Assembly: GCA_964532425.1 (NCBI GenBank)
Contig: CAZHIA010000004.1
Location: 19,740 to 83,739, forward strand
Reading direction: 5' to 3'
DNA length: 64,000 nt
From: an uncultured Candidatus Saccharibacteria bacterium
GTDB lineage: Bacteria > Patescibacteriota > Doudnabacteria > UBA920
The notes under the pieces were generated by a model, which saw only the letters and a program-made list of their open reading frames with translations, searched no databases and was not told the origin of the DNA. The number at the start of each line of letters is the position of its first letter. Positions within the stretch are counted from its first letter, which is position 1. Below, piece by piece: positions 625-50,476 of this stretch. A program made the translations under genes and the position numbers.

Positions 625-2037
625 TTATTTCAGTTGAGTCGTGAAATAATTGATCAGATCTGCAATGGCTACGCGAGGTTGCTCCTTGGTATCTCGGTTG
701 CGGACGGTGACGGTCCCGTCTTCCAGGGACTGGAAGTCCACGGTAATGCAGAACGGCGTACCGATTTCGTCCTGGCTATAATAACGCTTCCCAACGTTCC
801 CTCTGTCATCCCAGGCAGTGGTAAAATGCGGCGTCAGGCTTGCGTAAACTTCTTTAGCTTTTTCGACAAGCTGCGGCTTGTTGGCCAGCAGCGGAAATAC
901 GGCAACTTTATACGGAGCCAATTTTGGAGGCAAGGACAAGAACACGCGATCTTCCTCTTCTCGGTACGAGTCGAGCAGTACCATAGCCATAAGGCGATTG
1001 ATTCCAACCGCGGGTTCAATCACGTGCGGGACGAATTTCTTATTAGTATGCGGATCGGTATACTGCAAATCTGCCCCGCTGTGCTGCATATGCTGCTTTA
1101 AATCGTAATCGGTCCGGTATGCAATACCCCACAATTCCTTGAAGCCGAACGGGAACAGATATTCCATGTCTTCGGTGCGCTTGCTGTAGAACGAGCGCTC
1201 TTCATCACCATGCTCTCTCCAGCGCAAATGGTCGGCTTTGACCCCAAGAATTTCCGTAACAAACTTCCACATGTCGTTCTTCCAGGTCTCGAACAGCTCT
1301 TCCCATTTTGTCGATTCGGGATCGAAGAAGTATTCAATCTCGGCCTGCTCGAACTCGAGCGTCCGGAAAATAAAGTTCCCTTTGGTAATCTCATTGCGGA
1401 AAGATTTGCCGGTCTGACCGACACCAAACGGCAACCGCACGCGGGTGGAATCCAAAATATTTTTGAAGGACAGGAAAATACCCTGCGCGGTTTCTCCACG
1501 CAGGTATACGAGAGACTGATTCTCCGGAACAATGCCCACATGAGTCTCAAACAGCAAATTAAATTTCCTCACCGGTGTCCAATCGAACTTACCGCAGGTC
1601 GGGCACTTGATCTTGTGTTCTTGAATGATGGCGTCGAGCTCAGCCTCGGTCTTGCCTTCCACTTTCAAATCCGGCACCGCACCTTCAATGAGATGATCGG
1701 CCCGCGTGCGGGTGTGGCAGCTTTTGCATTCCACCATGGAGTCGGTCAAGCCGGCCACATGGCCGGAAGCCACCCAGGTTTTGGGATGCAGGATGATCGA
1801 AGAATCGAGTCCGACCATATCGGGCCGTGAGCGCACGAAAAATTGCCACCAGGCATCGGTGATATTCTTTTTCAATTCCACGCCGGCCGGACCGTATTCG
1901 TAGCTGTTCGCCATCCCGCCGTAAATTTCGCTGCCGGGAAAAACAAAACCGCGGCGCTTGCAGAGACTGACAATCTTTTCCATCTTGTCCGACGTAGCTT
2001 TAGCGAAGTCAGATAACTGTTCGTTTTGTTCGGCCAT
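625..2037 (-). CDS. glyQS: Glycyl-tRNA synthetase, alpha2 (GlyQS) type, class II aaRS
   Basis: Strong match to dimeric GlyRS, e.g. CKRRGFVFPGSEIYGGMANSYEYGPAGVELKKNI and FRNEI motifs, with a C-terminal anticodon-binding region. The track start (GTG at 2100) lies inside a palindromic repeat. The ATG at 2037 (MAEQNEQ...) is preferred because the conserved N-terminus begins just downstream (MEKIVSLCKRRGF). Confidence 0.88.
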   Translation of the reverse strand: MAEQNEQLSDFAKATSDKMEKIVSLCKRRGFVFPGSEIYGGMANSYEYGPAGVELKKNITDAWWQFFVRSRPDMVGLDSSIILHPKTWVASGHVAGLTDSMVECKSCHTRTRADHLIEGAVPDLKVEGKTEAELDAIIQEHKIKCPTCGKFDWTPVRKFNLLFETHVGIVPENQSLVYLRGETAQGIFLSFKNILDSTRVRLPFGVGQTGKSFRNEITKGNFIFRTLEFEQAEIEYFFDPESTKWEELFETWKNDMWKFVTEILGVKADHLRWREHGDEERSFYSKRTEDMEYLFPFGFKELWGIAYRTDYDLKQHMQHSGADLQYTDPHTNKKFVPHVIEPAVGINRLMAMVLLDSYREEEDRVFLSLPPKLAPYKVAVFPLLANKPQLVEKAKEVYASLTPHFTTAWDDRGNVGKRYYSQDEIGTPFCITVDFQSLEDGTVTVRNRDTKEQPRVAIADLINYFTTQLK

Positions 2038-2055
2038 AAGAATCCCCACATTCCT

Positions 2056-2105
2056 GTAGCGTGCCGATTCATCGGCTGACTTAAGCCCATAAATGGGCAC
2101 GCTAC
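2056..2105. repeat. Family-A palindromic repeat copy (GTAGCGTGCC-GATTCATCGGC ... GCCCATAAATGGGCACGCTAC) in the glyQS 5' leader
   Basis: Near-perfect 50-bp inverted repeat. Related copies at 13760-13817 and 50420-50476. Confidence 0.7.
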
Positions 2106-2192
2106 ACGATCTTTTTAATATAATTCCTCACCATTATACCAAAAACCGCACCCTGCTGCCAAGGTGCAGATTACCAGCCATTTACTGAGAGT

Positions 2193-2305
2193 TGTCATCG
2201 CGAGGCACCAAAGGGCTTTAGCTTTGGTACCGTGGCGATCTTGCCAAAAAAGATTGCTTCACCCTGCTATTTTATTGCTAGAAAATAGCAGGGCTCGCAA
2301 TGACA
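2193..2305. repeat. Short element bounded by 12-bp inverted repeats TGTCATCGCGAG / CTCGCAATGACA; it contains the tgt terminator hairpin
   Basis: The terminal inverted repeats match those of the element at 28442-28593 (TGTCATTGCGAG / CTCGCAATGACA). An internal AAGATTGCTTC motif is shared. Confidence 0.5.
2245..2293 (-). terminator. Rho-independent terminator of tgt
   Basis: Hairpin CCCTGCTATTTTATTGCTAGAAAATAGCAGGG, followed on the minus strand by a U-tract (TTTTTT). Confidence 0.7.
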
Positions 2306-2321
2306 ATAAAATATATCCGAT

Positions 2322-3506
2322 TTATTGATCTTTCAACAAAACCGTATAATCCCGGTACGTTTTGACCATCTCATCGAAGTTCTCGTACTGGATGGCTGTG
2401 CGGATCTTCTGCATCAAGTTCAGATAGAACTTCAAGTTGTGCATAGTAGCCAGGCGGATAGCCAGCGGTTCGCCGGTGGCAAACAGGTGGCGCAAATAGG
2501 ATTTGGAATGGTTCAGGCACAAGTAGCAGTCGCAACCGTTGTCGACTGTCGTAAAGTCTTCACGGTATTTCTCAAGCCTGATGTCGATAGTCTGATAGCC
2601 TTCGACTGTCCCATCGTTCGTTTCTATATTCCGTGCGGTGATGTAAAGCCGGCCATGCCGCGCCTCGCGCGTCGGGATGACGCAGTCAAACGTATCGCAG
2701 CCGCGCGCCGCCCCTTGGACAATATCAAACGGCGTGCCCACGCCAAGCAAATGTTTGGGTGCGGTTTCCGGCAAGAAAGGGATACAGTACTCAATAGCTT
2801 TCATCATCTCTTCGTGCGGTTCTCCTACTGCCACGCCGCCAATAGCAAAACCCTCAAAGCCAAAGTTGACCATGTCCTCGGCTGACTTTTTGCGCAGATC
2901 AGGGAAAGATGCACCTTGCACGATCCCCCACAGCTTTTGCCCCGGATTGACCGGGTCTCCGTCAATCATAATCTTCTGGTGCTCGCGAATAGCACGCTCG
3001 GCCCAGCGGTTGGTCTGCTCAATGGATTGCTTGCTGCGGCCATGTTCGAACGGGAAGCCGGGGAAGTCATCCAATATCAAAGCGATATCGCTGCCGAGGT
3101 TGGCCTGGATGTCCACGGATTTTTCCGGACTCAAAATTTCCTGCCGCCCGTCCAGATCGAACTGGAACAGCACCCCGGCTTCCATGACCTTGCGCATCTT
3201 GGAAAGTGAAAAAACCTGGAACCCGCCGCTGTCGGTAAAAATAGGACCTTTCCAGTTCATGAACTTATGGAGCCCGCCCGCTTTGTAAATGAGTGCATCC
3301 CCCGGCCGCTGCCATAAATGATAGGTATTAGCCAGCACCATCTGAGCGCCCCAAAACTTCAGTTCTTCGGTCGTAACTGATTTAATGGCACCTTTGGTAC
3401 CGATCGGCAAAAACATCGGCGTCAAGACATCGCCGTGCGCGGTGTGCAGCACGCCATTACGCGCACTGCTGCCTGCATCTTTTTTGAGAATTTCGAAGTA
3501 AGACAT
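2322..3506 (-). CDS. tgt: Queuine tRNA-ribosyltransferase (tRNA-guanine transglycosylase)
   Basis: Canonical Tgt sequence (LPIGTKGAIK, FTDSGGFQVFSL, GIVQGASFPDLR, CDCYLC zinc site). Start reassigned to the ATG at 3506 (MSYFEILKK...); the longer track ORF to 3722 is a non-conserved upstream extension. Confidence 0.92.
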   Translation of the reverse strand: MSYFEILKKDAGSSARNGVLHTAHGDVLTPMFLPIGTKGAIKSVTTEELKFWGAQMVLANTYHLWQRPGDALIYKAGGLHKFMNWKGPIFTDSGGFQVFSLSKMRKVMEAGVLFQFDLDGRQEILSPEKSVDIQANLGSDIALILDDFPGFPFEHGRSKQSIEQTNRWAERAIREHQKIMIDGDPVNPGQKLWGIVQGASFPDLRKKSAEDMVNFGFEGFAIGGVAVGEPHEEMMKAIEYCIPFLPETAPKHLLGVGTPFDIVQGAARGCDTFDCVIPTREARHGRLYITARNIETNDGTVEGYQTIDIRLEKYREDFTTVDNGCDCYLCLNHSKSYLRHLFATGEPLAIRLATMHNLKFYLNLMQKIRTAIQYENFDEMVKTYRDYTVLLKDQ

Positions 3507-3586
3507 TAGCCATAGTATACTAAATTTTCGCCATTTTGAAAATTGTATATGATATAGTACAATACCAAAAACCACCAGGAGGGTTT

Positions 3587-3784
3587 GTGAGCACTGAACT
3601 TGTAATCGAAATTGAGCAGGACACAGACGGCCGCTGGATCGGCGAAGTAATATCCATGCCCGGAGTGATGGTCTATGGTGCCAGTCCGGAGGATGCGCGG
3701 GCCCGTGCTGCAAAGCTCGCACAACAGGTCATCCAAGATCGGGAAGAAACTGCTTCTCCCTACGATCGCCCGGAATTCGAATAA
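3587..3784 (+). CDS. UPF0150/HicB-like small protein (type II antitoxin-like fold)
   Basis: Motif GRWIGEVISMPGVMVYGASPEDARARA is typical of the HicB/UPF0150 family. GTG start with a strong AGGAGG 7 nt upstream; the ATG at 3536 (track) lacks an RBS. Confidence 0.55.
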   Translation: MSTELVIEIEQDTDGRWIGEVISMPGVMVYGASPEDARARAAKLAQQVIQDREETASPYDRPEFE

Positions 3785-4608: not shown

Positions 4609-4697
4609 ATTAAATTACGGCAGGCCACGGGCCTGCACTACAACTCGCTGATGGTGTGATAAATGTAGTGCAGGCCCGCGGCCTGCTGCTTTAATGG
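4609..4697. repeat. Family-B palindromic element (two inverted copies of the hairpin unit GTAGTGCAGGCCnnnGGCCTGC)
   Basis: GCAGGCCACGGGCCTGCACTACA ...22 nt... TGTAGTGCAGGCCCGCGGCCTGC, with flanking CATTAAATTA / TTTAATG inverted. A related copy is at 30322-30400. Confidence 0.7.
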
Positions 4698-5476: not shown

Positions 5477-5550
5477 GTTTTCCTCCTGAAAAGATGGGTT
5501 TTGAAAACTAACCCATAATTATAGCATTTTTTAACATTTTTGTCAATATT

Positions 5551-5579
5551 AAAATCCCTAGTATTTACTAGGGATTTTA
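5551..5579 (-). terminator. Intrinsic terminator downstream of the 5595-6569 gene
   Basis: AAATCCCTAGTATTTACTAGGGATTTT perfect hairpin with a T-tract. Confidence 0.7.
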
Positions 5580-9080: not shown

Positions 9081-9216
9081 GAATTGTCCTTTCTTGCCCC
9101 GCCCTTTGCTCACAAAGAGCGGGGTGTGTTTCAGAGTGTTATGCGTGTTGACGAGGACTTTTTTTAAAAATCCTTCGCTATACCCGCACACCACCGCTGA
9201 AACATTAATAAATTAA

Positions 9217-9320
9217 TTGACAAAATTTAAAAAATTGAACAAAATTGACAAAATTATTCAAACCAGCCTGCAATTTATTTTTGTCAATTTTGTCATTTTT
9301 GTCATTTTTGTCAATATTAC
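9217..9320. promoter_or_regulatory. Iteron-like array: about 3 forward and about 4 reverse copies of TTGACAAAAT in the pnp upstream region
   Basis: AATTGACAAAATTT..AAAATTGACAAAATTA.. then TTTTGTCAATTTTGTCATTTTTGTCATTTTTGTCAA. Each unit contains a TTGACA (-35-like) hexamer. A similar TGTCA triplet array lies upstream of the xer gene (11965-11995). Confidence 0.5.
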
Positions 9321-9721
9321 TACTTCCTCATACTTCCCAGCATCTCTTCCTCAAAATGGAGCAGGAACTGGATCGGATCCGGGGTGCTGCCAAACAAGAT
9401 GTGGTCAACACTGCTGCGCTGGCCGCGGTCCTTCATGCTTTCCACGCCCTTCTCCTGAAACCAATCCTTCCATAATAGACTAAACTGCCGGTACCCCTCT
9501 GACCCCTCTTCGCCGAACCGCTCATAGATTATCTGGTATTTCGTCGTATCACAGATATTGATGAACTCGCTTTTTTCATCCAAAGTCAAATACCCATGCT
9601 TCTGCAAAGCATCTTTTAATTCCTGAATGCGTGGCGAGGTATACACAGCTTGGCAGATTTCCCTGCCAAGCTGTGTCCATTCGGCATCGAATTTTTCAAA
9701 ATCTAGAGATCTTTCAGTCAT
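9320..9721 (-). CDS. Hypothetical protein, 133 aa, inserted between rpsO and pnp
   Basis: ORF in track; no motif. Confidence 0.5.
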   Translation of the reverse strand: MTERSLDFEKFDAEWTQLGREICQAVYTSPRIQELKDALQKHGYLTLDEKSEFINICDTTKYQIIYERFGEEGSEGYRQFSLLWKDWFQEKGVESMKDRGQRSSVDHILFGSTPDPIQFLLHFEEEMLGSMRK

Positions 9722-11900: not shown

Positions 11901-12002
11901 AAAATCCATTTAAAAGATTGAGCATGATTTAAACGATTTAAAAGAATATGGACCCATGTTCTTTTAAATTTTGTCATTCATGTCAATCTTGTCAACAATA
12001 AT

Positions 12003-13043
12003 ATGCTTCGAAACAAAAACACCGCCAAACAACCACCATTGAGCGAAAATAAAAAAACCCGCCCCCTCACCCCATTACAGCGTTATATTATTGAATTTCT
12101 TGAATATTGTGAGATCGGCAAAAACCAAAGCCGGCGGACCGTGGCCAATTACCACCACTACCTGGGACGCTTTGACGGTTTTGCCGAAATGCAGGGCGTC
12201 CACAAGCCTGACCAGATCACCCTGGAATTGGTCCGGAAATACCGGCTCTATTTGAACCGTTTCGAAGAACGGGACGGCCAGCCTTTAAAGCTCATTACCC
12301 AAAACTACCATCTGATCGCGCTACGGGCATTTCTGAAATATCTGACGAAGCAGGATGTTCAAACTCTGGCTCCCGAAAAAATAGAGCTGCCAAAGAATCC
12401 TATGCGCCAAGTCGAATTCCTGGAAGAAGAAGAGCTCCAGCGGCTCATTGACGCCACGGACAAAGAACCGAGCGAATTGCTCCGGGTGCGCGATCGCGCG
12501 GTAATGGAAACGCTGTTCTCGACCGGTTTGCGCGTTTCCGAGCTGTGTAGCCTGCGCCGCGACAACATTAACTTGGACCGCGGCGAATTTACCGTGCGCG
12601 GCAAAGGTAGCAAGTTGAGGGTCGTTTTCTTGTCTGATGAGGCAACGGCTGCCATCAAACAGTACCTGGCTAAACGGCCGGATAACAACAAGGCCTTGTT
12701 CGTCGGTCATTCGACCATTGGCAACTCGATCGAGATGGAAATAGAATCCCAAGGGTTCAAGTCTGGCAAAAGCGAACCAGTAGCCGAAATACAGGGGCTC
12801 ACGCCGCGCAGCGTGCAGCGCATTATAAAAAAATACTGCCGGATTGCCGGCATTGTGAAAAAAGTTTCGCCGCACACGCTGCGGCATTCATTCGCGACCG
12901 ATCTCTTGCAAAACGGCGCGGATATCCGTTCGGTCCAGACCATGCTGGGACATGCCAGCATTACCACGACGCAAATTTATACGCATATTACCAACCAGGG
13001 ATTACGTGAGATACACAGGAAATTTCATAATAAAAAAGAATGA
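12003..13043 (+). CDS. Tyrosine site-specific recombinase, XerC/XerD family
   Basis: C-terminal catalytic region HTLRHSFATDLLQNGADIRSVQTMLGHASITTTQIYTH (R..H..R..Y pattern); N-terminal SAM-like core-binding domain. Confidence 0.85.
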   Translation: MLRNKNTAKQPPLSENKKTRPLTPLQRYIIEFLEYCEIGKNQSRRTVANYHHYLGRFDGFAEMQGVHKPDQITLELVRKYRLYLNRFEERDGQPLKLITQNYHLIALRAFLKYLTKQDVQTLAPEKIELPKNPMRQVEFLEEEELQRLIDATDKEPSELLRVRDRAVMETLFSTGLRVSELCSLRRDNINLDRGEFTVRGKGSKLRVVFLSDEATAAIKQYLAKRPDNNKALFVGHSTIGNSIEMEIESQGFKSGKSEPVAEIQGLTPRSVQRIIKKYCRIAGIVKKVSPHTLRHSFATDLLQNGADIRSVQTMLGHASITTTQIYTHITNQGLREIHRKFHNKKE

Positions 13044-13726: not shown

Positions 13727-13861
13727 CCTGAATCAAAAAACTAACCTGCTTATTTGAGTGTAGCGTGCCCATTTATGGGCCGAGAAGGCTTAAGTGGCCG
13801 ATAAATCGGCACGCTGCAAAACCTATGAAATCTCTAACATTTCCGAGTTTTTTGATTCAGG
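13727..13861. repeat. MITE-like element: 16-bp perfect terminal inverted repeats (CCTGAATCAAAAAACT / AGTTTTTTGATTCAGG) enclosing a family-A palindrome
   Basis: The core GTAGCGTGCCCATTTATGGGC..GGCCGATAAATCGGCACGCTGC (13760-13817) is nearly identical to the glyQS-leader repeat. Confidence 0.7.
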
Positions 13862-21359: not shown

Positions 21360-23267
21360 TCAGGCTTCCACGGTCTCCTGGAGCACTTCTTCCGCGTGGC
21401 GGCGCTGGGTCTGTAAATTGTATATACGGGCATACTCCCCGTTTGTCGCCAGCAATTGATTGTGTGTACCGCGCTCTACGACTGCACCGCCGACAAGCAG
21501 GAGAATTTCGTCGCTATCAATGACCGTAGCAAATCGATGTGCAACCGTAATTGAGGTCACGCCTTTGGATACCTCCAATATGCTCTTCCGAATCTGTTCT
21601 TCAGTACTGCTATCGAGCGCTGAGGTAGCTTCGTCGAAAATGAGAACGTCGGGCCGCTTAATGATCGATCGGGCAATGGCAATGCGCTGTTTTTCGCCGC
21701 CCGAAACCATCAATCCCCGCTCTCCGACTTTTGTCAGCAATCCGTCGGACAGTTTGGCCAAAAACGGCTGCAGACTGGCGCGCTGCGCCGCATCCGCTAC
21801 CGCTTCTTCCGGCGCGGCAAAGCTGCCATAGCGGATATTGTCCGCGATGGTGGTATTGAATAGGACGTTATCCTGCAACACAAGCCCGATGCGCTTGTGC
21901 AGGGACTCGATGTCATAGTCTTGAATGGGGCGGCCGTCAATAAGGATCTCGCCCGAAGTCGGCTCATAGAACCGCAACAGTAGTTTGACGATGGTCGATT
22001 TACCGCTGCCGGTCTGCCCGACCAGGGCCAACTTCTTCCCGGGTTCGACCGTAAAAGAGATGTTCTGAAGTATGGGCCGAGGTTTTTGATTGGCGTCATC
22101 CTGAGCCGTGAGTGCATCCGAACGGCGAAGGATCCCATTTCTGGTGCCATCCGTAAATTGAGATGCTTCGTCGGATGCACTCCTCAGCATGACGCCAAAA
22201 GAAGGGCCATAGTCAAAGCTGACATTTTTAAATTCCACCTTCCCGCGCAACTTTTCCACTTTCGTCGCCCCCGGTTTGCTCCGAATCGTGACCGGTTCAT
22301 TGAGCACGCTCTGCAGCCGGTCGACTGCCGCAACACCTTCGCTGTATTTGGTGTAGATATCACCCAGATCGTATAACGGTTGGTATACGGCAAACGAATA
22401 GAAGTTGAACAGGATGACATTAGCAAAAGACAGCAGTCCGCGGAAACTCAACACCGCGCCCCACCACAGAAGTACCACGCGCGCCAGATTCACGACCGTA
22501 CCTTGGGCAAATCCTAAAGCCTGATACGAGACGGTTTTCTTCTTGAGCCGCACATGTGACAGCTGGTTGTCATGGTGCAAATTCTCCTCTTCGTGTTGTT
22601 CGGAGGAAAAAGCTTTGACCAACTCGATATGGCTAACTGCTTCAAACGAAGAGCCGAACAATTGTTCATTGATCTTATTAATCTCAACCTGGGTCCGCTT
22701 AATGCGGCGGGTGAAAACCCAGGTCACTAAAAAGAACAATGGAATGAATCCGAACAGGGCAACACCCATGCGCCAGGATTTCCAAAAAACAATCCCAAAC
22801 ACGACCACGATGGAAAAAGAGTTCTGGAAAATCTTATCGAATATGACCGAGAATAGGGACGTAATGTCATCGCGCGCCTTAGAAAGCTTGCGGAAGACTT
22901 CCCCGGCTTTTTCCTGGCTGTGAAAAGCCATGGGTAGTTGCAGGACATGGCTGTAGGCGTGTTCCAGGACGCGAATGCCGATGCGGTCAGCCACGGTAGA
23001 TACGAAGTAGGACTGCAGATTCTTAAAGGTGCGCGCGCCGAAGGCCACGCCAATCCAAGACAACACTACAAGCGTCAGGCTTCTGAAAAAATTCTGCGGA
23101 CTGCCGAAGCTGTACGGATTAGCCATGTACTTGCTGATGATCGTGGCGAAAAAGAACGGCTCTACCAACGACAATGACTGGCTTAAAATAACGAATAAAA
23201 AAATGAGGGCTATTTTGCCCTTTTCCTGCTGCCAATAATGGGAGAGAAAACGTAAATAAGGGAACAT
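21360..23267 (-). CDS. ABC transporter, fused permease/ATPase (MsbA-like exporter) carrying a 35-aa in-frame insertion in the NBD
   Basis: Six-TM N-terminal domain; Walker A GQTGSGKST, signature LSGGEKQRIAIARS, Walker B VLIFDEATSALD. Insertion GVMLRSASDEASQFTDGTRNGILRRSDALTAQDDA lies between the FDYGPSF and NQKPRPILQNISF segments. Confidence 0.9.
   Translation of the reverse strand: MFPYLRFLSHYWQQEKGKIALIFLFVILSQSLSLVEPFFFATIISKYMANPYSFGSPQNFFRSLTLVVLSWIGVAFGARTFKNLQSYFVSTVADRIGIRVLEHAYSHVLQLPMAFHSQEKAGEVFRKLSKARDDITSLFSVIFDKIFQNSFSIVVVFGIVFWKSWRMGVALFGFIPLFFLVTWVFTRRIKRTQVEINKINEQLFGSSFEAVSHIELVKAFSSEQHEEENLHHDNQLSHVRLKKKTVSYQALGFAQGTVVNLARVVLLWWGAVLSFRGLLSFANVILFNFYSFAVYQPLYDLGDIYTKYSEGVAAVDRLQSVLNEPVTIRSKPGATKVEKLRGKVEFKNVSFDYGPSFGVMLRSASDEASQFTDGTRNGILRRSDALTAQDDANQKPRPILQNISFTVEPGKKLALVGQTGSGKSTIVKLLLRFYEPTSGEILIDGRPIQDYDIESLHKRIGLVLQDNVLFNTTIADNIRYGSFAAPEEAVADAAQRASLQPFLAKLSDGLLTKVGERGLMVSGGEKQRIAIARSIIKRPDVLIFDEATSALDSSTEEQIRKSILEVSKGVTSITVAHRFATVIDSDEILLLVGGAVVERGTHNQLLATNGEYARIYNLQTQRRHAEEVLQETVEA
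22092..22196. repeat. 105-bp imperfect palindromic element inserted in-frame and codon-aligned (codons 358-392) in the ABC transporter gene
   Basis: Arms GGCGTCATCCTGAGCCGTGAGTGCATCCGAACGG and (reverse complement) GGCGTCATGCTGAGGAGTGCATCCGACGAAGCAT. A related partial copy is intergenic at 28505-28560, and a related arm lies at 30322-30345. Confidence 0.75.
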
Positions 23268-26027: not shown

Positions 26028-28376
26028 ATGGGAAAAATGGCAAATTTTATCGCCACATACCAGGTCGTTAAGAAACATTTTAAAAAAGTTGCGTTTCAAA
26101 ATGCCGTGACTCTGGTCAACGGGATCTTTTTTGTGGTCTGCCTGCTCCTGCTCGTATTTCTGGAATTTCACGAGGCGCTGTTTTTAGCCATCGTTTTGTT
26201 CCTCAACATCATTATCGGCATTATTCAAGATTTACGCGCCAAGGTTGCCCTGGAGCGGTTACAGATTCTCATGACCCCCAAAATTACGCGATTGCACAAG
26301 AACGGGCTCGAAGAGACTGTCCGGTTGGAGGACGTTACCATGGGAGACGTACTCAAGGTTTCGCTCGGCGACCAAATTCCGGCTGACGGCGTGATAGTGG
26401 AAAGCCGCGGCCTTGAAGTAAACGAAGCGCTCATTACCGGAGAATCCAATAGCGTAGCCAAAACCGTGGGAAGCAAGACACTCGCCGGCAGCATTGCCAC
26501 AGCCGGATGGGGTAGTCTGCAAGTTACCGTTCCCCCGTCAGAGAGCTTTGTCTCGCAGATGACCAACAAGATCAAGCAGTACACGATCAACCTGAGTCCT
26601 ATTCAGCAGACACTCAACACGTTCATCACGTACATGACTTATCTCCTGCTGGCCGTGGTCATATACGTCATTTACCACGGACTAACCGTCCATGAACTGC
26701 TCGTCTCAATAGTCAAAGATATTGCCGCACTGACCGGTACGCTCGTCCCACAAGGATTAATATTGGCCACCACCGTATTCTTCGCTTATGGCGCCGTTCG
26801 CTTATTCCGCAAGCAAGTTCTGCTCCAAGAGATCAATGCCACGGAAAAGCTGGGACGGATAAAGAACCTTTGCATAGACAAGACCGGCACACTGACCGAG
26901 AATAAGCCCACACTCGAATCAATCGAGCTATACGGAGGTACCACGCAGGATCAGGCATTGCAGTTGATCGATGGATACATCCAAGCCAACAATGACGCTT
27001 CGGAGACTACCAAGGCCATACAGGCGGGACGCAAACCAACCTTCCAAGGTTCAGTCAGTGATTCCCTCCCTTTTTCTTCTACCCGGAAATTTGGCACAGC
27101 CACTCTTCTGCAACCGGGTGGAACATTTGTCACCATTACTGTGGGAGCCCCTGATGTTCTCCTGACGCGCCTGGGACTGGCTGCCGAACAGGAATGGTTG
27201 AATGCCGTGATCAACCATTACGCCACCCAAGCCAAACGTTTAGTCTTGCTGGCTATGGCTGACCAGAATATGCTGGAGGCGCCGGTCCAAGAGTCCGTAC
27301 TCCACCCGGTTGCCGTGTTCGTGCTATCCAATCCCCTCCGTACCGGCACGACAGATATCATCAACTTCTTCCAGAACCGCGGGGTCAGTATCCGCGTCAT
27401 TTCCGGTGACAACCCGAAGACTGTCCAAGCAATAGCCGTACAAGCGGGTATTAAGCACGCAGACATAATTGTCACCGGTCCGGAAATTGAGCGTTGGGAT
27501 AGCGAGGAATTCCAGGAACGTATTCCGGCCTACCACTTATTCGCCCGCATCAAACCGGAACAAAAAGAACGTATTGTCGAATTGTTCAAAACCCAAGGAT
27601 TCACGGCCATGGTCGGCGACGGAGCCAATGACGCACTTGCCATTAAAAAATCCGACCTCGGGATTGCCATGTTCGACGGCGCCGGCGCCACAAGGCAGAT
27701 TGCCCAAGTCGTGCTCATGAACAACAGTTTTGCCGCGCTTCCCACCGGAGTCAATCTGGCCGAGACCATCATCACGAACATCGAACTGGTCGCCAGCGCA
27801 TTCTTCTACTCGGTCACTGTTGGATTGTCATTGTTTCTCATCCTCGCAATCCTCGGCTACACCTACCCGCTCTCTCCCCGCAACACCACCATTATCAACT
27901 ATTTCATTGTCTGGCTGCCCATGGTCTACTGGACCGTATTCCCTGCCCACCAGGAAAGCACAGAGGAAAATCGGTCATTTCTCAGACGAGTGCTGCCTTA
28001 TTCCATCCTGAATGGCGTTTTGACCGCGTTTGCGGCTACTTTGGCCTTTGCCTTGGGACCGGAAGCTTTGCGCTTTTCCGGCTCGCATATACTGGTGGTA
28101 CTAACCGTGGCCGCTCTTGGATTTTGGTTCTTCGTGCTCACCCCTATTGCACACCGTATCCCGGTCACGAAGCAGCAAAAGAAGGTTATTTACCTGCTGG
28201 CCGGCATTGGCGCGGTGTTTCTTATCTTTGTTATGTTCCACCCGGGGCTCTCTGAATTCTTCGATCTGCAACGGCCAACCCTGCTCCCGCTCATTTCCGC
28301 CCTCAGCATCAGCTTCCTCGTGGGATGGCTGCAGTTTCAGCTTGTCAAACGATTCTTTGCCAGGCCAAAAACCTAA
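26028..28376 (+). CDS. Cation-transporting P-type ATPase (HAD-type; probable P2/P3-like)
   Basis: DKTGTLTENKP phosphorylation site, TGES actuator motif, GDGANDALAIKKSDLGIAM hinge, 8-10 TM helices. Confidence 0.88.
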   Translation: MGKMANFIATYQVVKKHFKKVAFQNAVTLVNGIFFVVCLLLLVFLEFHEALFLAIVLFLNIIIGIIQDLRAKVALERLQILMTPKITRLHKNGLEETVRLEDVTMGDVLKVSLGDQIPADGVIVESRGLEVNEALITGESNSVAKTVGSKTLAGSIATAGWGSLQVTVPPSESFVSQMTNKIKQYTINLSPIQQTLNTFITYMTYLLLAVVIYVIYHGLTVHELLVSIVKDIAALTGTLVPQGLILATTVFFAYGAVRLFRKQVLLQEINATEKLGRIKNLCIDKTGTLTENKPTLESIELYGGTTQDQALQLIDGYIQANNDASETTKAIQAGRKPTFQGSVSDSLPFSSTRKFGTATLLQPGGTFVTITVGAPDVLLTRLGLAAEQEWLNAVINHYATQAKRLVLLAMADQNMLEAPVQESVLHPVAVFVLSNPLRTGTTDIINFFQNRGVSIRVISGDNPKTVQAIAVQAGIKHADIIVTGPEIERWDSEEFQERIPAYHLFARIKPEQKERIVELFKTQGFTAMVGDGANDALAIKKSDLGIAMFDGAGATRQIAQVVLMNNSFAALPTGVNLAETIITNIELVASAFFYSVTVGLSLFLILAILGYTYPLSPRNTTIINYFIVWLPMVYWTVFPAHQESTEENRSFLRRVLPYSILNGVLTAFAATLAFALGPEALRFSGSHILVVLTVAALGFWFFVLTPIAHRIPVTKQQKKVIYLLAGIGAVFLIFVMFHPGLSEFFDLQRPTLLPLISALSISFLVGWLQFQLVKRFFARPKT

Positions 28377-28441
28377 ACAAGGACTCTCATAAACCCCCTT
28401 TTACATTTGATTCCACCAGTCCGCAATGGCATGCTCTTGTT

Positions 28442-28593
28442 TGTCATTGCGAGCCAAGAAAATTTCAATGTTAAATTTTCTTGGCGAAGCAATCTTATGT
28501 GTACGGCGTCATCCTGAGTGCATCCGAAGGATCTCAATGCCAGGAAAGATTGCTTCGTCAAAAAGATAAAGCCCTTTTCTCCTCGCAATGACA
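28442..28593. repeat. Composite palindromic element with 12-bp terminal inverted repeats TGTCATTGCGAG / CTCGCAATGACA; the right TIR contains the start codon of the pentapeptide-repeat gene
   Basis: Contains the nested palindrome CCAAGAAAATTTCAATGTTAAATTTTCTTGG and a partial copy of the ABC-gene insertion element (GGCGTCATCCTGAGTGCATCCGAAGGATC). Confidence 0.6.
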
Positions 28594-29235
28594 TCAAACT
28601 TGCATAAAATCTATTCCGATCTGCCGAAAGGGCTCCAGCCGGTTCCAGAGTTTCAACTGACCAGCGACAGCGAGTATGAATTGCTCGACATTACGGGAGG
28701 ATCCGCAGCAGGACAAACACTGGAACAACTCAAGTTCCTGGAGTGTCATGTAAAAAATTTTTCCCTCGGGCAGGCAACCGTTACCGATATCCGCATCACG
28801 AACTCCAAGTTCGAAGATTGCGACCTGGCCAATGCAAAATGCACGAAAGCACTGGCAGAACGGACCGAGTTCATCAAATGCCGAATGACCGGCTTTAAGT
28901 CGCCTGAGGCGGTCTTTAAGAATGTCCTATTTAAAAACTGCCAGTGCAAGCTCTCCCAATTCCGATTCTGCAAATTCAAAAATGTCACATTCGAGCATTG
29001 TATCCTCGAAGAAGCGGATTTTTACGGAGCCGACCTGACCGGGGCCGTATTTTCCGACTGCGACCTGCTCAAGGCAGACTTTTCATCCGCACGGATGCAT
29101 GAGACCGATCTCAGAACCAGCAAGATAGCAGGTATAAGCGTTAACATCGAAAGCCTCAAAGGCGCGATCATCGACGTTTCCCAGGTCAATGACCTGGCTT
29201 GGCTGCTCGGAGTAAAAATTGAGTGGAAAGAATAA
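28588..29235 (+). CDS. Pentapeptide-repeat protein
   Basis: Tandem A(D/N)LxG-type pentapeptide repeats (ADFYGADLTGAVFSDCDLLKADFSSARMHETDL). Confidence 0.8.
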   Translation: MTSNLHKIYSDLPKGLQPVPEFQLTSDSEYELLDITGGSAAGQTLEQLKFLECHVKNFSLGQATVTDIRITNSKFEDCDLANAKCTKALAERTEFIKCRMTGFKSPEAVFKNVLFKNCQCKLSQFRFCKFKNVTFEHCILEEADFYGADLTGAVFSDCDLLKADFSSARMHETDLRTSKIAGISVNIESLKGAIIDVSQVNDLAWLLGVKIEWKE

Positions 29236-30321: not shown

Positions 30322-30400
30322 ACGTCGTTCTGAGCCGTAGTGCAGGCCCTTGGCCTGCCCAGATGCTCGGATATTTGAGCAGGGCACGGCCCTGCACTAC
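30322..30400. repeat. Family-B palindromic element copy 2 (inverted pair of GTAGTGCAGGCCnnnGGCCTGC hairpins) with a family-C-like left arm
   Basis: GACGTCGTTCTGAGCCGTAGTGCAGGCCCTTGGCCTGC ... GCAGGGCACGGCCCTGCACTAC. The left flank resembles GGCGTCATCCTGAGCCGTGAGTGCA of the ABC-gene element. Confidence 0.65.
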
Positions 30401-40510: not shown

Positions 40511-40593
40511 CGCTCGCATTCTCAGCCAAACCTTCTCAAGGTTTGGCTGTTTTTAATACGTTACTGATCTATCAAAATCAAATGTTCCTTCCA

Positions 40594-40629
40594 TTCTACA
40601 AATTACTGCATATGCAGTAATTTGTAGAA
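40594..40629. terminator. Perfect 36-bp palindrome TTCTACAAATTACTGCATATGCAGTAATTTGTAGAA
   Basis: Perfect inverted repeat; a variant with the same ACTGCATATGCAGT core lies at 41813-41848. Confidence 0.55.
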
Positions 40630-40748
40630 TACAATATTTGGATATCAATAATTGCCAACTACTTCGCAGTACAAGATGAGATACATCGCGGACACGAGAA
40701 CTCATTTCTGCTATAATTGAGGCGTAAATTCAAAAGTACCCATCCAAT

Positions 40749-41750
40749 ATGGAAAACAAGCCACTGCTGCAAACTGAGATCAGCGACCCTCTTAACATCC
40801 TCAGCTCTACCAAACAGGTAGCGGATAGTTTCCAATTTGTTTCGATCAATGAAGAGTCTTTGGAGAATTTGTCTCAAGAGATTATCAAGCGCTTTGGCCA
40901 GGGGCTCAGTAACCAGGAATTGGGTTTTACCGTTTCGGGGGACTTGGAACGGGACCTGCAAACCATATTCGTGGAAGACGCAGTGAATTTCTGTTTTTGG
41001 GCAAGCAAAGGGCAGTCCAAGTGGCAAATAGAACTGCCGGATGGCGGCAAAACGGAAGGCGGTTGGTTTGGGCTGCAAGCCTGCTTTGAACGAGCACTTT
41101 TAGAACACGTGCCAATCTTTGAGGCTGACCATCTGGCGCAATTGAATAGGACTGATGCCGAACATTTTTTCCGAGGTGTAGGCGGTGTGACGATTCCCCT
41201 ACTGGACGAACGCATAAATAATCTGCGCGAGACTGGGAAAATCCTGTTAGAAAAATTTGATGGACAATTTTCAAATGTTGTGCAGACTGCTAATGGTGAC
41301 GCCATAGAATTAGTTAAGATCATAGCCAAAAATTTTCCCTCTTTCCGTGATGTTTCGCAGTTTGATGGTATTGAAGTTAGTTTCCTCAAGCGGGCACAGA
41401 TCTGCGCCAATGATACTATACGCATCCTGAAAGACCATCATCAAAATATGGCAGGGCTAGAATTACTCACTGCCTTTGCCGACTACAAGCTCCCTCAAAT
41501 CTTGCGCATGTTCGGGGTATTGCAATACGAACCATCTCTTGCGAAGCGGATAGATATTTATGAGGAGATTCCGCACGACAGCCGTGAGGAAATCGAAATC
41601 CGGGCTGCTACTATTTGGGCGGTCGAACTACTGAGACAACGGACCCCTCACCTGACTGCCAGTGACATCGACAACACCCTCTGGCTGTTAAGCCAGGACA
41701 TCCAAAATGAAGCCAAACCATACCACCGGACAAGAACGATCTATTATTAG
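40749..41750 (+). CDS. DUF2419-like protein (putative queuosine salvage / Qng1-like)
   Basis: FCFW motif and C-terminal RTRTIYY resemble the DUF2419/Qng1 family; tgt is also present in the window. Confidence 0.5.
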   Translation: MENKPLLQTEISDPLNILSSTKQVADSFQFVSINEESLENLSQEIIKRFGQGLSNQELGFTVSGDLERDLQTIFVEDAVNFCFWASKGQSKWQIELPDGGKTEGGWFGLQACFERALLEHVPIFEADHLAQLNRTDAEHFFRGVGGVTIPLLDERINNLRETGKILLEKFDGQFSNVVQTANGDAIELVKIIAKNFPSFRDVSQFDGIEVSFLKRAQICANDTIRILKDHHQNMAGLELLTAFADYKLPQILRMFGVLQYEPSLAKRIDIYEEIPHDSREEIEIRAATIWAVELLRQRTPHLTASDIDNTLWLLSQDIQNEAKPYHRTRTIYY

Positions 41751-41812
41751 AGCGCTTTCCTGCTGCAAACTTTCCAACTTTACTTGGAACCTATAGCAAA
41801 CTCATGACCTTA

Positions 41813-41848
41813 TTCAACAAAAAACTGCATATGCAGTTTTTTGTTGAA
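41813..41848. terminator. Perfect 36-bp palindrome TTCAACAAAAAACTGCATATGCAGTTTTTTGTTGAA (bidirectional terminator-like)
   Basis: A-tract, stem, T-tract; between convergent genes. Confidence 0.6.
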
Positions 41849-41855
41849 TAACTAA

Positions 41856-50419: not shown

Positions 50420-50476
50420 GGCCGATAAATCGGCACGCTACATTATTTATAAAAAGAATCGGCACACTACACGATC
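50420..50476. repeat. Family-A repeat copy 3 (GGCCGATAAATCGGCACGCTAC ... CGGCACACTACACGATC)
   Basis: Matches half-sites of the repeats at 2056-2105 and 13760-13817. Confidence 0.6.

Follow-up and report, generated by a model that had tools for sequence, protein, structure and literature searches.

We propose that three palindromic elements in a 64-kb stretch of DNA (the window, that is, all 64,000 nucleotides analysed) are tag-outward inverted dimers of CGTC-tagged REP-like units, and that their effects on neighbouring genes are by-products of the sites at which the units landed. We regard this reading as highly probable. The elements are designated A (28442-28593), B (2193-2305) and C (22090-22198), and they lie respectively before a pentapeptide-repeat gene, downstream of tgt and within an ABC exporter gene. 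Repeats of this kind are already known; the match to CGTC REPs is to their published text description and was made over 64 kb of the host genome. Where they overlap a start codon, a possible terminator and a coding region, they do so incidentally, with no sign of a designed regulatory part.

Element A is bounded by arms at 28442-28453 (TGTCATTGCGAG) and 28582-28593 (CTCGCAATGACA), located by sequence reading and with a repeat finder, which are complementary at 12 of 12 positions and separated by 128 nt. The sister element recognized in the first-pass annotation at 2193-2305 was confirmed as element B: its arms at 2193-2204 (TGTCATCGCGAG) and 2294-2305 (CTCGCAATGACA) are complementary at 11 of 12 positions, and the repeat finder returned 13-nt arms at 2192-2204/2294-2306 with 92% complementarity. 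The motif TGTCATYGCGAG, with up to one mismatch, matched five times in the 64-kb window compared with 0.65 matches expected, and none of 100 shuffles reached five, so that the original description of palindromic elements with inverted ends is well founded. The exact head YGTCATNNNGAG occurs seven times in the window, every copy within A, B or C, where simple arithmetic predicts about one, and each of the seven has a partner of the form CGA(A)-x'y'z'-ATC. Heads with one mismatch were at chance level in the window, and for this reason we claim no further degenerate copies, with the exception of a possible relic at 28410-28432 (GATTCCACCAGTCCGCAATGGCA). This sequence resembles a decayed reverse-oriented unit, its head opposing the head of the left unit of A across 9-10 nt, and it may be the relic of an older insertion at the element A site. 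The nested palindromes described earlier are also present: an inner inverted pair, CGAAGCAATCTT / AAGATTGCTTCG, lies inside the outer arms of both A and B, and a hairpin separates outer from inner arms on each side of both elements, different in every case (in A, a 13-bp hairpin at 28453-28485). The intergenic region holding element A has the same sequence in two independent Logan assemblies, and element A is not an assembly artefact.

The window contains seven REP-like units at three loci, and all three loci are inverted dimers with their tags outward. A search of the 64-kb window with the general form YGTC-AT-xyz-GAG-(variable loop or hairpin)-CGA(A)-x'y'z'-AT-CYY returned five strict units; the number rises to seven with the two halves of B, which depart slightly from this form. 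Each unit consists of an unpaired YGTC tag (TGTC or CGTC in all seven), a 5-bp base helix beginning A-T, T-A, a conserved, purine-rich internal loop in which GAG faces CGA or CGAA, a distal loop or hairpin that varies between units and a C-Y-Y tail, which in the window reads CTT, CTC or CCC. The five Watson-Crick pairs are followed by G.A / A.G / G-C, and the loops, of 6-32 nt, are often hairpins. Four stem variants were found: TGC:GCA in the left and right units of A and the right unit of B, CGC:GCG in the left unit of B, CCT:AGG in the central unit of A and the left unit of C, and GCT:AGC in the right unit of C. When the seven cores were aligned, columns 5-6 paired with columns 20-21 as AU, UA in all units, and the local 5-bp helix was 100% paired, with three of its five pairs varying on both sides. 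The observed covariation score was matched by none of 500 shuffles, and all slid registers failed. Both B and C are heterodimers, and the single arm mismatch of each falls at a covarying position where the compensation is inside the unit and not across the arms. It is therefore the unit that is conserved. What had appeared to be a 12-bp terminal inverted repeat (TIR) is formed where two units lie face to face, from the tag and the 5' half-stem of each.

In element A the left unit (28442-28496, forward strand) is composed of TGTC, ATTGC-GAG, a 31-nt loop with a 13-bp hairpin (28454-28484), CGAA-GCAAT and the tail CTT. Folded alone, it is predicted to form a base helix of 5 bp and a distal hairpin of 13 bp with an internal loop between them (-21 kcal/mol, z = -4.3). 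The right unit is inverted (28546-28593, reverse strand) and comprises a tail, GATTGCTTCG, a 24-nt loop and CTCGCAATGACA, with the tag outermost. These two units make up a head-to-head (HH) dimer, and a third, of a second subfamily, is nested in the spacer at 28507-28535 on the forward strand (CGTC-ATCCT-GAG-TGCATC-CGA-AGGAT-CTC, with a 6-nt loop). Its sequence, CGTCATCCTGAG-TGCATC-CGAAGGATCTC, matches the left unit of the ABC-gene element in head and stem. The annotation had recorded a partial copy of that element here; the relationship stands, as both belong to the same subfamily as 22090-22198, but the copy is a complete single unit and not a fragment.

The gene 5' of element A encodes a P-type ATPase (26028-28376, forward strand). 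It is distinct from the ABC gene, which lies at 21360-23267. On the other side, the pentapeptide-repeat gene (28588-29235, forward strand) is a 215-aa ORF whose first start codon, the ATG at 28588-28590, lies inside the reverse-complemented tag ATGACA of the right arm, as had been noted at the outset. The ORF opens just six codons 5' of this ATG, and the only nearby in-frame alternative is a TTG at 28600. In an alignment of nine homologues (216-231 aa) the N-termini fell between one residue inside and ten beyond ATG 28588. From these comparisons, the overlap of the repeat tag with the pentapeptide start codon is probably real here. The ATG is present because the tag YGTCAT reads ATGACR on the opposite strand, and each reverse-oriented unit thus bears an ATG at its outer end. 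Following 229 reverse-oriented tags in other genomes, among the matches listed, runs of at least 100 open codons numbered 25 in the ATG frame and 26 and 26 in the other frames. There is no sign of preferential capture of tag ATGs as starts, and the suggestion that short elements of this kind serve to supply start contexts was not supported.

The closest pentapeptide homologue other than the protein itself was 56% identical in a protein search, and at two homologue loci the neighbourhoods were unrelated, the gene lying directly after or overlapping its upstream gene. With relatives at most 56% identical and the two homologue loci lacking synteny, no empty site was found. Reading of the flanks of A, B and C detected no target-site duplication. 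We infer that the elements were inserted into these sites.

Sequestration of the pentapeptide start had been raised in the first-pass annotation, and the fold predicted for the whole of element A as RNA (-57.3 kcal/mol, z = -6.7) does place the AUG within a 12-bp outer helix. For a transcript begun inside A, the right unit is predicted to be weakly structured and the AUG free (-6.8 kcal/mol, z = -0.96). A scan of 28300-28700 detected no promoter-like site, and the pentapeptide ATG has neither a Shine-Dalgarno motif nor an adjacent -10 box, unlike many genes in the window. If transcribed from upstream, element A would form a stable branched hairpin holding the pentapeptide AUG in its outer helix and, by analogy with intercistronic E. 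coli REPs, might protect the message of the ATPase gene before it at its 3' end and lower downstream translation. As a separate observation on gene starts, hardly any gene has a Shine-Dalgarno motif (3 of 41), and many start codons are preceded by a TATAAT-like hexamer that ends 5-10 nt away, at about 2.5-fold over background, with examples upstream of the genes at 23267, 26028, 29276, 30457, 46403 and 57004. This pattern suggests widespread leaderless mRNAs in the source genome.

Element B lies 16 nt 3' of the stop codon of tgt (2322-3722, reverse strand). Its left unit (2193-2242, forward strand) carries the compensated stem variant CGC:GCG and consists of TGTC-ATCGC-GAG, the hairpin GGCACCAAAG/CTTTGGTACC and CGTG-GCGAT-CTT; its right unit (2250-2305, reverse strand) consists of GATTGCTTCA, the 12-bp hairpin CCCTGCTATTTT/AAAATAGCAGGG and CTCGCAATGACA. 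On the minus strand, which is that of tgt, the right unit is followed by one base and then U6 (2251-2246), and it has a 5-bp A/U-rich base helix and a distal hairpin of about 12-13 bp. Element B had been annotated as containing the tgt terminator. In the hairpin named, however, the 3' half of the unit comes next and there is no T run directly. The sole consensus terminator lies outside B at 2169-2146 on the minus strand, within a terminator-like hairpin and T run at 2141-2169 (reverse strand; a 10-bp stem then TTTTT, -16.6 kcal/mol), 24 nt past the element and overlapping a promoter-like site of the class II aminoacyl-tRNA synthetase gene (625-2100, reverse strand). Element B is not needed to account for a tgt terminator; from the modelled structure, it is possible that the right unit with its U6 adds to tgt termination.

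Element C is an HH heterodimer of the second subfamily and occupies an in-frame position in the ABC exporter gene (21360-23267, reverse strand), with a left unit at 22094-22136 on the forward strand (stem CCT:AGG) and a right unit at 22160-22194 on the reverse strand (stem GCT:AGC). The exporter ORF, of 635 aa, continues uninterrupted through the element. Residues 361-398 (about 38) align with nothing in ABCB19 and other solved exporters, in which the residues on either side are directly adjacent, and they fall in the ATPase (nucleotide-binding) domain, just before the strand leading to Walker A. As mRNA, the element is predicted to fold at -61 kcal/mol (z = -8.4). On the aligned sequences, we read element C as an in-frame insertion of about 38 repeat-derived residues, a decoration of a conserved protein in the manner of the Rickettsia palindromic elements (RPEs), and it would be tolerated as an insertion in a loop of the ABC ATPase domain.

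Further copies of the repeat, which the annotation had anticipated, were found both in the 64-kb window and very widely in other genomes. The pattern GTCATYGCGAG-N12-40-YGAAGCAATC was scanned over a species-representative genome collection of 596 Gb. The 22-nt core, YGTCATTGCGAG ... CGAAGCAATC, was recovered at a minimum of 120 genome loci, where arithmetic gives about 31 chance matches in all 596 Gb, and by record titles the matches listed cover more than 20 phylum-level groups. Hosts among the matches listed include the Alphaproteobacteria (many Bradyrhizobium, Rhodopseudomonas and Rickettsiales), Gammaproteobacteria, Chloroflexota, Patescibacteria, Planctomycetota, Zixibacteria, Ignavibacteriota, Bacteroidota, Cyanobacteria, Atribacterota, Omnitrophota, Spirochaetes, Nitrospirales, Desulfobacterota, Bacillota, Verrucomicrobiota, Elusimicrobiota, Gemmatimonadota and Myxococcota, with others. 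In these same listed matches, positions that the pattern had left free were conserved: a pyrimidine precedes GTC in 92-96% of units, and a pyrimidine opens the tail in 98-99%. Where the loops measure at least 11 nt, they are more self-complementary than shuffled controls; the loops extend the stem and have many different sequences, and the tail CCA is common in alphaproteobacterial copies (again among the matches listed). Neighbouring units in the listed matches were arranged 47 times with tags outside (HH), compared with four times with tags inside (TT) and 15 times in tandem (HT), with spacers typically of 18-33 nt; for 93 of 213 units in other genomes, no strict partner lay within 150 nt. 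The core was also recovered from at least 120 IMG/VR viral contigs, and the commonest loop there is 5 nt. As such contigs may include host DNA, we conclude nothing about phage carriage.

Head-to-tail arrays of the core, in place of inverted dimers, are present in some of the other genomes and viral contigs, repeating regularly at about 33 nt or at about 50 nt (for example, locus L172 at 2695-2818 and locus L007 at 1340-1875). ORFs may also run into the repeats and so gain repeat-encoded tails, as at locus L023 (3691-5265, reverse strand) and locus L067, for example ...SLRGSLATKQSP...EIASLPSVARNDRQF. Spurious or extended protein predictions recurrently arise in this way. When the translations of genes flanked by dimers were read, they proved to be cell-envelope genes at L023 and a nucleotidyltransferase ORF and an unannotated ORF at L067, and no transposase was apparent among them.

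A Pfam scan of the roughly 46 ORFs of the 64-kb window detected no transposase, of the Y1/HUH or any other type, and the only recombinase among them is a XerC/D-like protein (12003-13043). We take the units to be non-autonomous repeats; by analogy with GTAG REPs and the ends of IS200/IS605, a trans-acting enzyme would spread them by recognizing the hairpin base and tag on single-stranded DNA. Other repeats of REP type are present in the window. A second family with a GTAG tag, TGTAGCGTGCCSATTYATSGGC, occurs at 2052-2109, 13759-13830 and 50420-50454, as inverted dimers at the first two sites, and the dimer at 2052-2109 is placed either in the leader of the aminoacyl-tRNA synthetase gene or across its called start. 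A third, also GTAG-tagged, TGTAGTGCAGGCC..GGCCTGC, occurs at 4620-4686 and 30337-30400, once with tags inside and once outside. This coexistence of several REP families points to a possible RAYT gene in another part of the genome.

One alternative explanation for the data is that the elements are deletion derivatives of an insertion sequence (MITE-like) that move as one piece, the 12-bp TIRs being transposase binding sites. The perfect 12-bp inverted ends of A and near-perfect ends of B would fit this model, as would the short length of the elements (113-152 bp) and the folding of a whole element as one long hairpin. However, A and B have no internal sequence in common other than the unit cores, the flanks of all three elements lack a target-site duplication and the 64-kb window encodes no transposase. 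The arm mismatches of B and C, moreover, are compensated inside the units, and units occur alone, both within A and, among the matches listed from other genomes, in the 93 of 213 without a strict partner within 150 nt. The composite element with transposon-like TIRs that was originally proposed does not survive this evidence, its arms being the tag and half-stem of independent units, and we consider movement as a single piece highly improbable. That the palindromes arose by chance or by misassembly is barely conceivable; the few copies in 64 kb, taken with nothing else, might have allowed it, but the motif is enriched over shuffles, two independent assemblies are identical in sequence, and hundreds of related units elsewhere are conserved at positions that the search left unconstrained.

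Another possibility is that element A is a dedicated cis-regulatory RNA, a translational gate or thermosensor whose outer helix hides the pentapeptide AUG and opens under some condition. The position of the AUG in a 12-bp helix of the -57.3 kcal/mol predicted structure is consistent with this, as is the release of the AUG predicted for a transcription start inside the element (-6.8 kcal/mol, z = -0.96), and the same may be said of an ATG that, unlike those of many genes here, has neither a Shine-Dalgarno motif nor an adjacent -10 box. Against it, the same units sit 3' of tgt and inside the ABC coding sequence, which are unrelated contexts, and pentapeptide homologues are found in other gene neighbourhoods at the two loci where gene order was compared. 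ORFs in the ATG frame are not enriched across genomes, and Rfam gave no relevant family at either the gathering or a permissive threshold. We judge a dedicated regulatory RNA to be very unlikely. A combined proposal, that the 22-nt core marks one trans-acting recognition system for the orphan CGTC repeats and that in element A, in an organism poor in Shine-Dalgarno sequences that may use leaderless mRNAs, the tag is a functional start and the dimer a translational gate of the pentapeptide gene, seems to us unlikely; if the start and gate reading were true, regulation would have made use of a repeat that was selfish in origin. Tag-outward dimers of CGTC-tagged units, with incidental effects on the genes beside them, are the reading that we carry forward.

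Two further sets of repeats in the window deserve mention. Octamer arrays, TTTTGTCA / TGACAAAA, with a 9-nt period and in both orientations, are found in intergenic DNA at 9202-9331, 5510-5563 and 11959-12003, one of them directly 5' of the XerC/D-like recombinase gene (12003-13043); their layout could be that of protein-binding iterons. In addition, two perfect palindromes, related to each other, 38-42 nt long and centred on CTGCATATGCAG (40593-40631 and 41810-41851), flank a queuosine-salvage gene (40749-41750) and, from their position, could be operator sites.

These findings have consequences for annotation. Apparent 12-bp TIRs of this type should not be taken for transposon ends, caution is called for with ORFs beginning at ATGACR or crossing these repeats, and a 38-residue stretch of the ABC exporter is repeat-derived. 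The survey also places one CGTC-type core in far more lineages than the five phyla reported in 2013, and in viral contigs as well. The published description of the class reports no mobilizing enzyme (PMC3733652), and a core family so uniform and widespread would suit a co-occurrence search for one, which is a question about the repeat class and not about this locus.

CGTC-tagged REPs were described by Di Nocera, De Gregorio and Rocco (2013, BMC Genomics 14:522; PMC3733652). As given in the text of that paper, the tag is a terminal unpaired CGTC, often TGTC and with CCTC variants too, the stems nearly always begin A-T, T-A, HH dimers (tags outside) predominate, heterodimers are common and spacers may hold stem-loops of their own. 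The repeats number tens to thousands per genome and sit mostly between co-directional or convergent genes, near 3' ends; intragenic copies are known, some in frame, as are overlaps with ORF N-termini, many of which those authors judge to be extragenic, and the text associates no transposase with them. To the extent of that description, the window units are alike in their CGTC/TGTC tag, A-T/T-A stem start, short unpaired tail and HH dimers, and likewise in their intergenic positions near gene ends, occasional in-frame copies, N-terminus overlaps and want of a transposase. The surveyed core shares with the published repeats its Bradyrhizobium, Rhodopseudomonas and Rickettsiales hosts. There are also differences. 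The published stems are of 8-9 bp with loops of 4-5 nt (with exceptions in Bradyrhizobium, K. olearia and M. prima), whereas in the window units a helix of 5 bp is followed by a conserved GAG/CGA(A) internal loop, and the loops span 6-32 nt. The described tail is three unpaired nucleotides with the consensus CCA, while those in the window are CTT, CTC and CCC, and the repeats were reported from five phyla, whereas the core here spans more than 20 among the matches listed (PMC3733652). The unit sequence and its encoded peptide (VIASE...) are absent from the supplements of the 2013 paper. Literature searches with the exact 10-11-mers gave unrelated primer matches only, and searches for work after 2013 on CGTC repeats, and on REPs in candidate phyla, found nothing new. 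Two of the Rickettsia elements are themselves classified among the CGTC repeats, RPE-4 being CGTC-4 and RPE-6 being CGTC-1 (PMC3733652).

Element C resembles the Rickettsia RPEs in being a palindromic repeat that lies in frame in a coding gene, adds a few dozen residues and leaves the ORF intact; the host lineage and unit sequence differ, and element C is the one intragenic copy in the 64-kb window. Among these elements, RPE-1 was reportedly described by Ogata and others in 2000. REPINs, reportedly introduced by Bertels and Rainey in 2011, are said to be REP doublets that form hairpins and are thought to be the mobile unit. Like them, the window dimers consist of two inverted REP units with a short spacer and can be folded as one long hairpin. 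REPINs, however, are built from GTAG-type REPs, have a cognate RAYT and have spacers conserved within a genome, whereas in the window no such RAYT was found and the three CGTC dimers have unrelated spacers and loops. The REP/BIME sequences of E. coli, such as that between malE and malF, form a stable intercistronic hairpin, carry a GTAG tag and have a known RAYT; a hairpin so placed would be expected to shield the message before it from 3' exonucleases and to reduce expression of the gene after it. Element A is comparable in placing a stable hairpin between two co-directional genes, and the predicted folding suggests that it could act there in a similar way.
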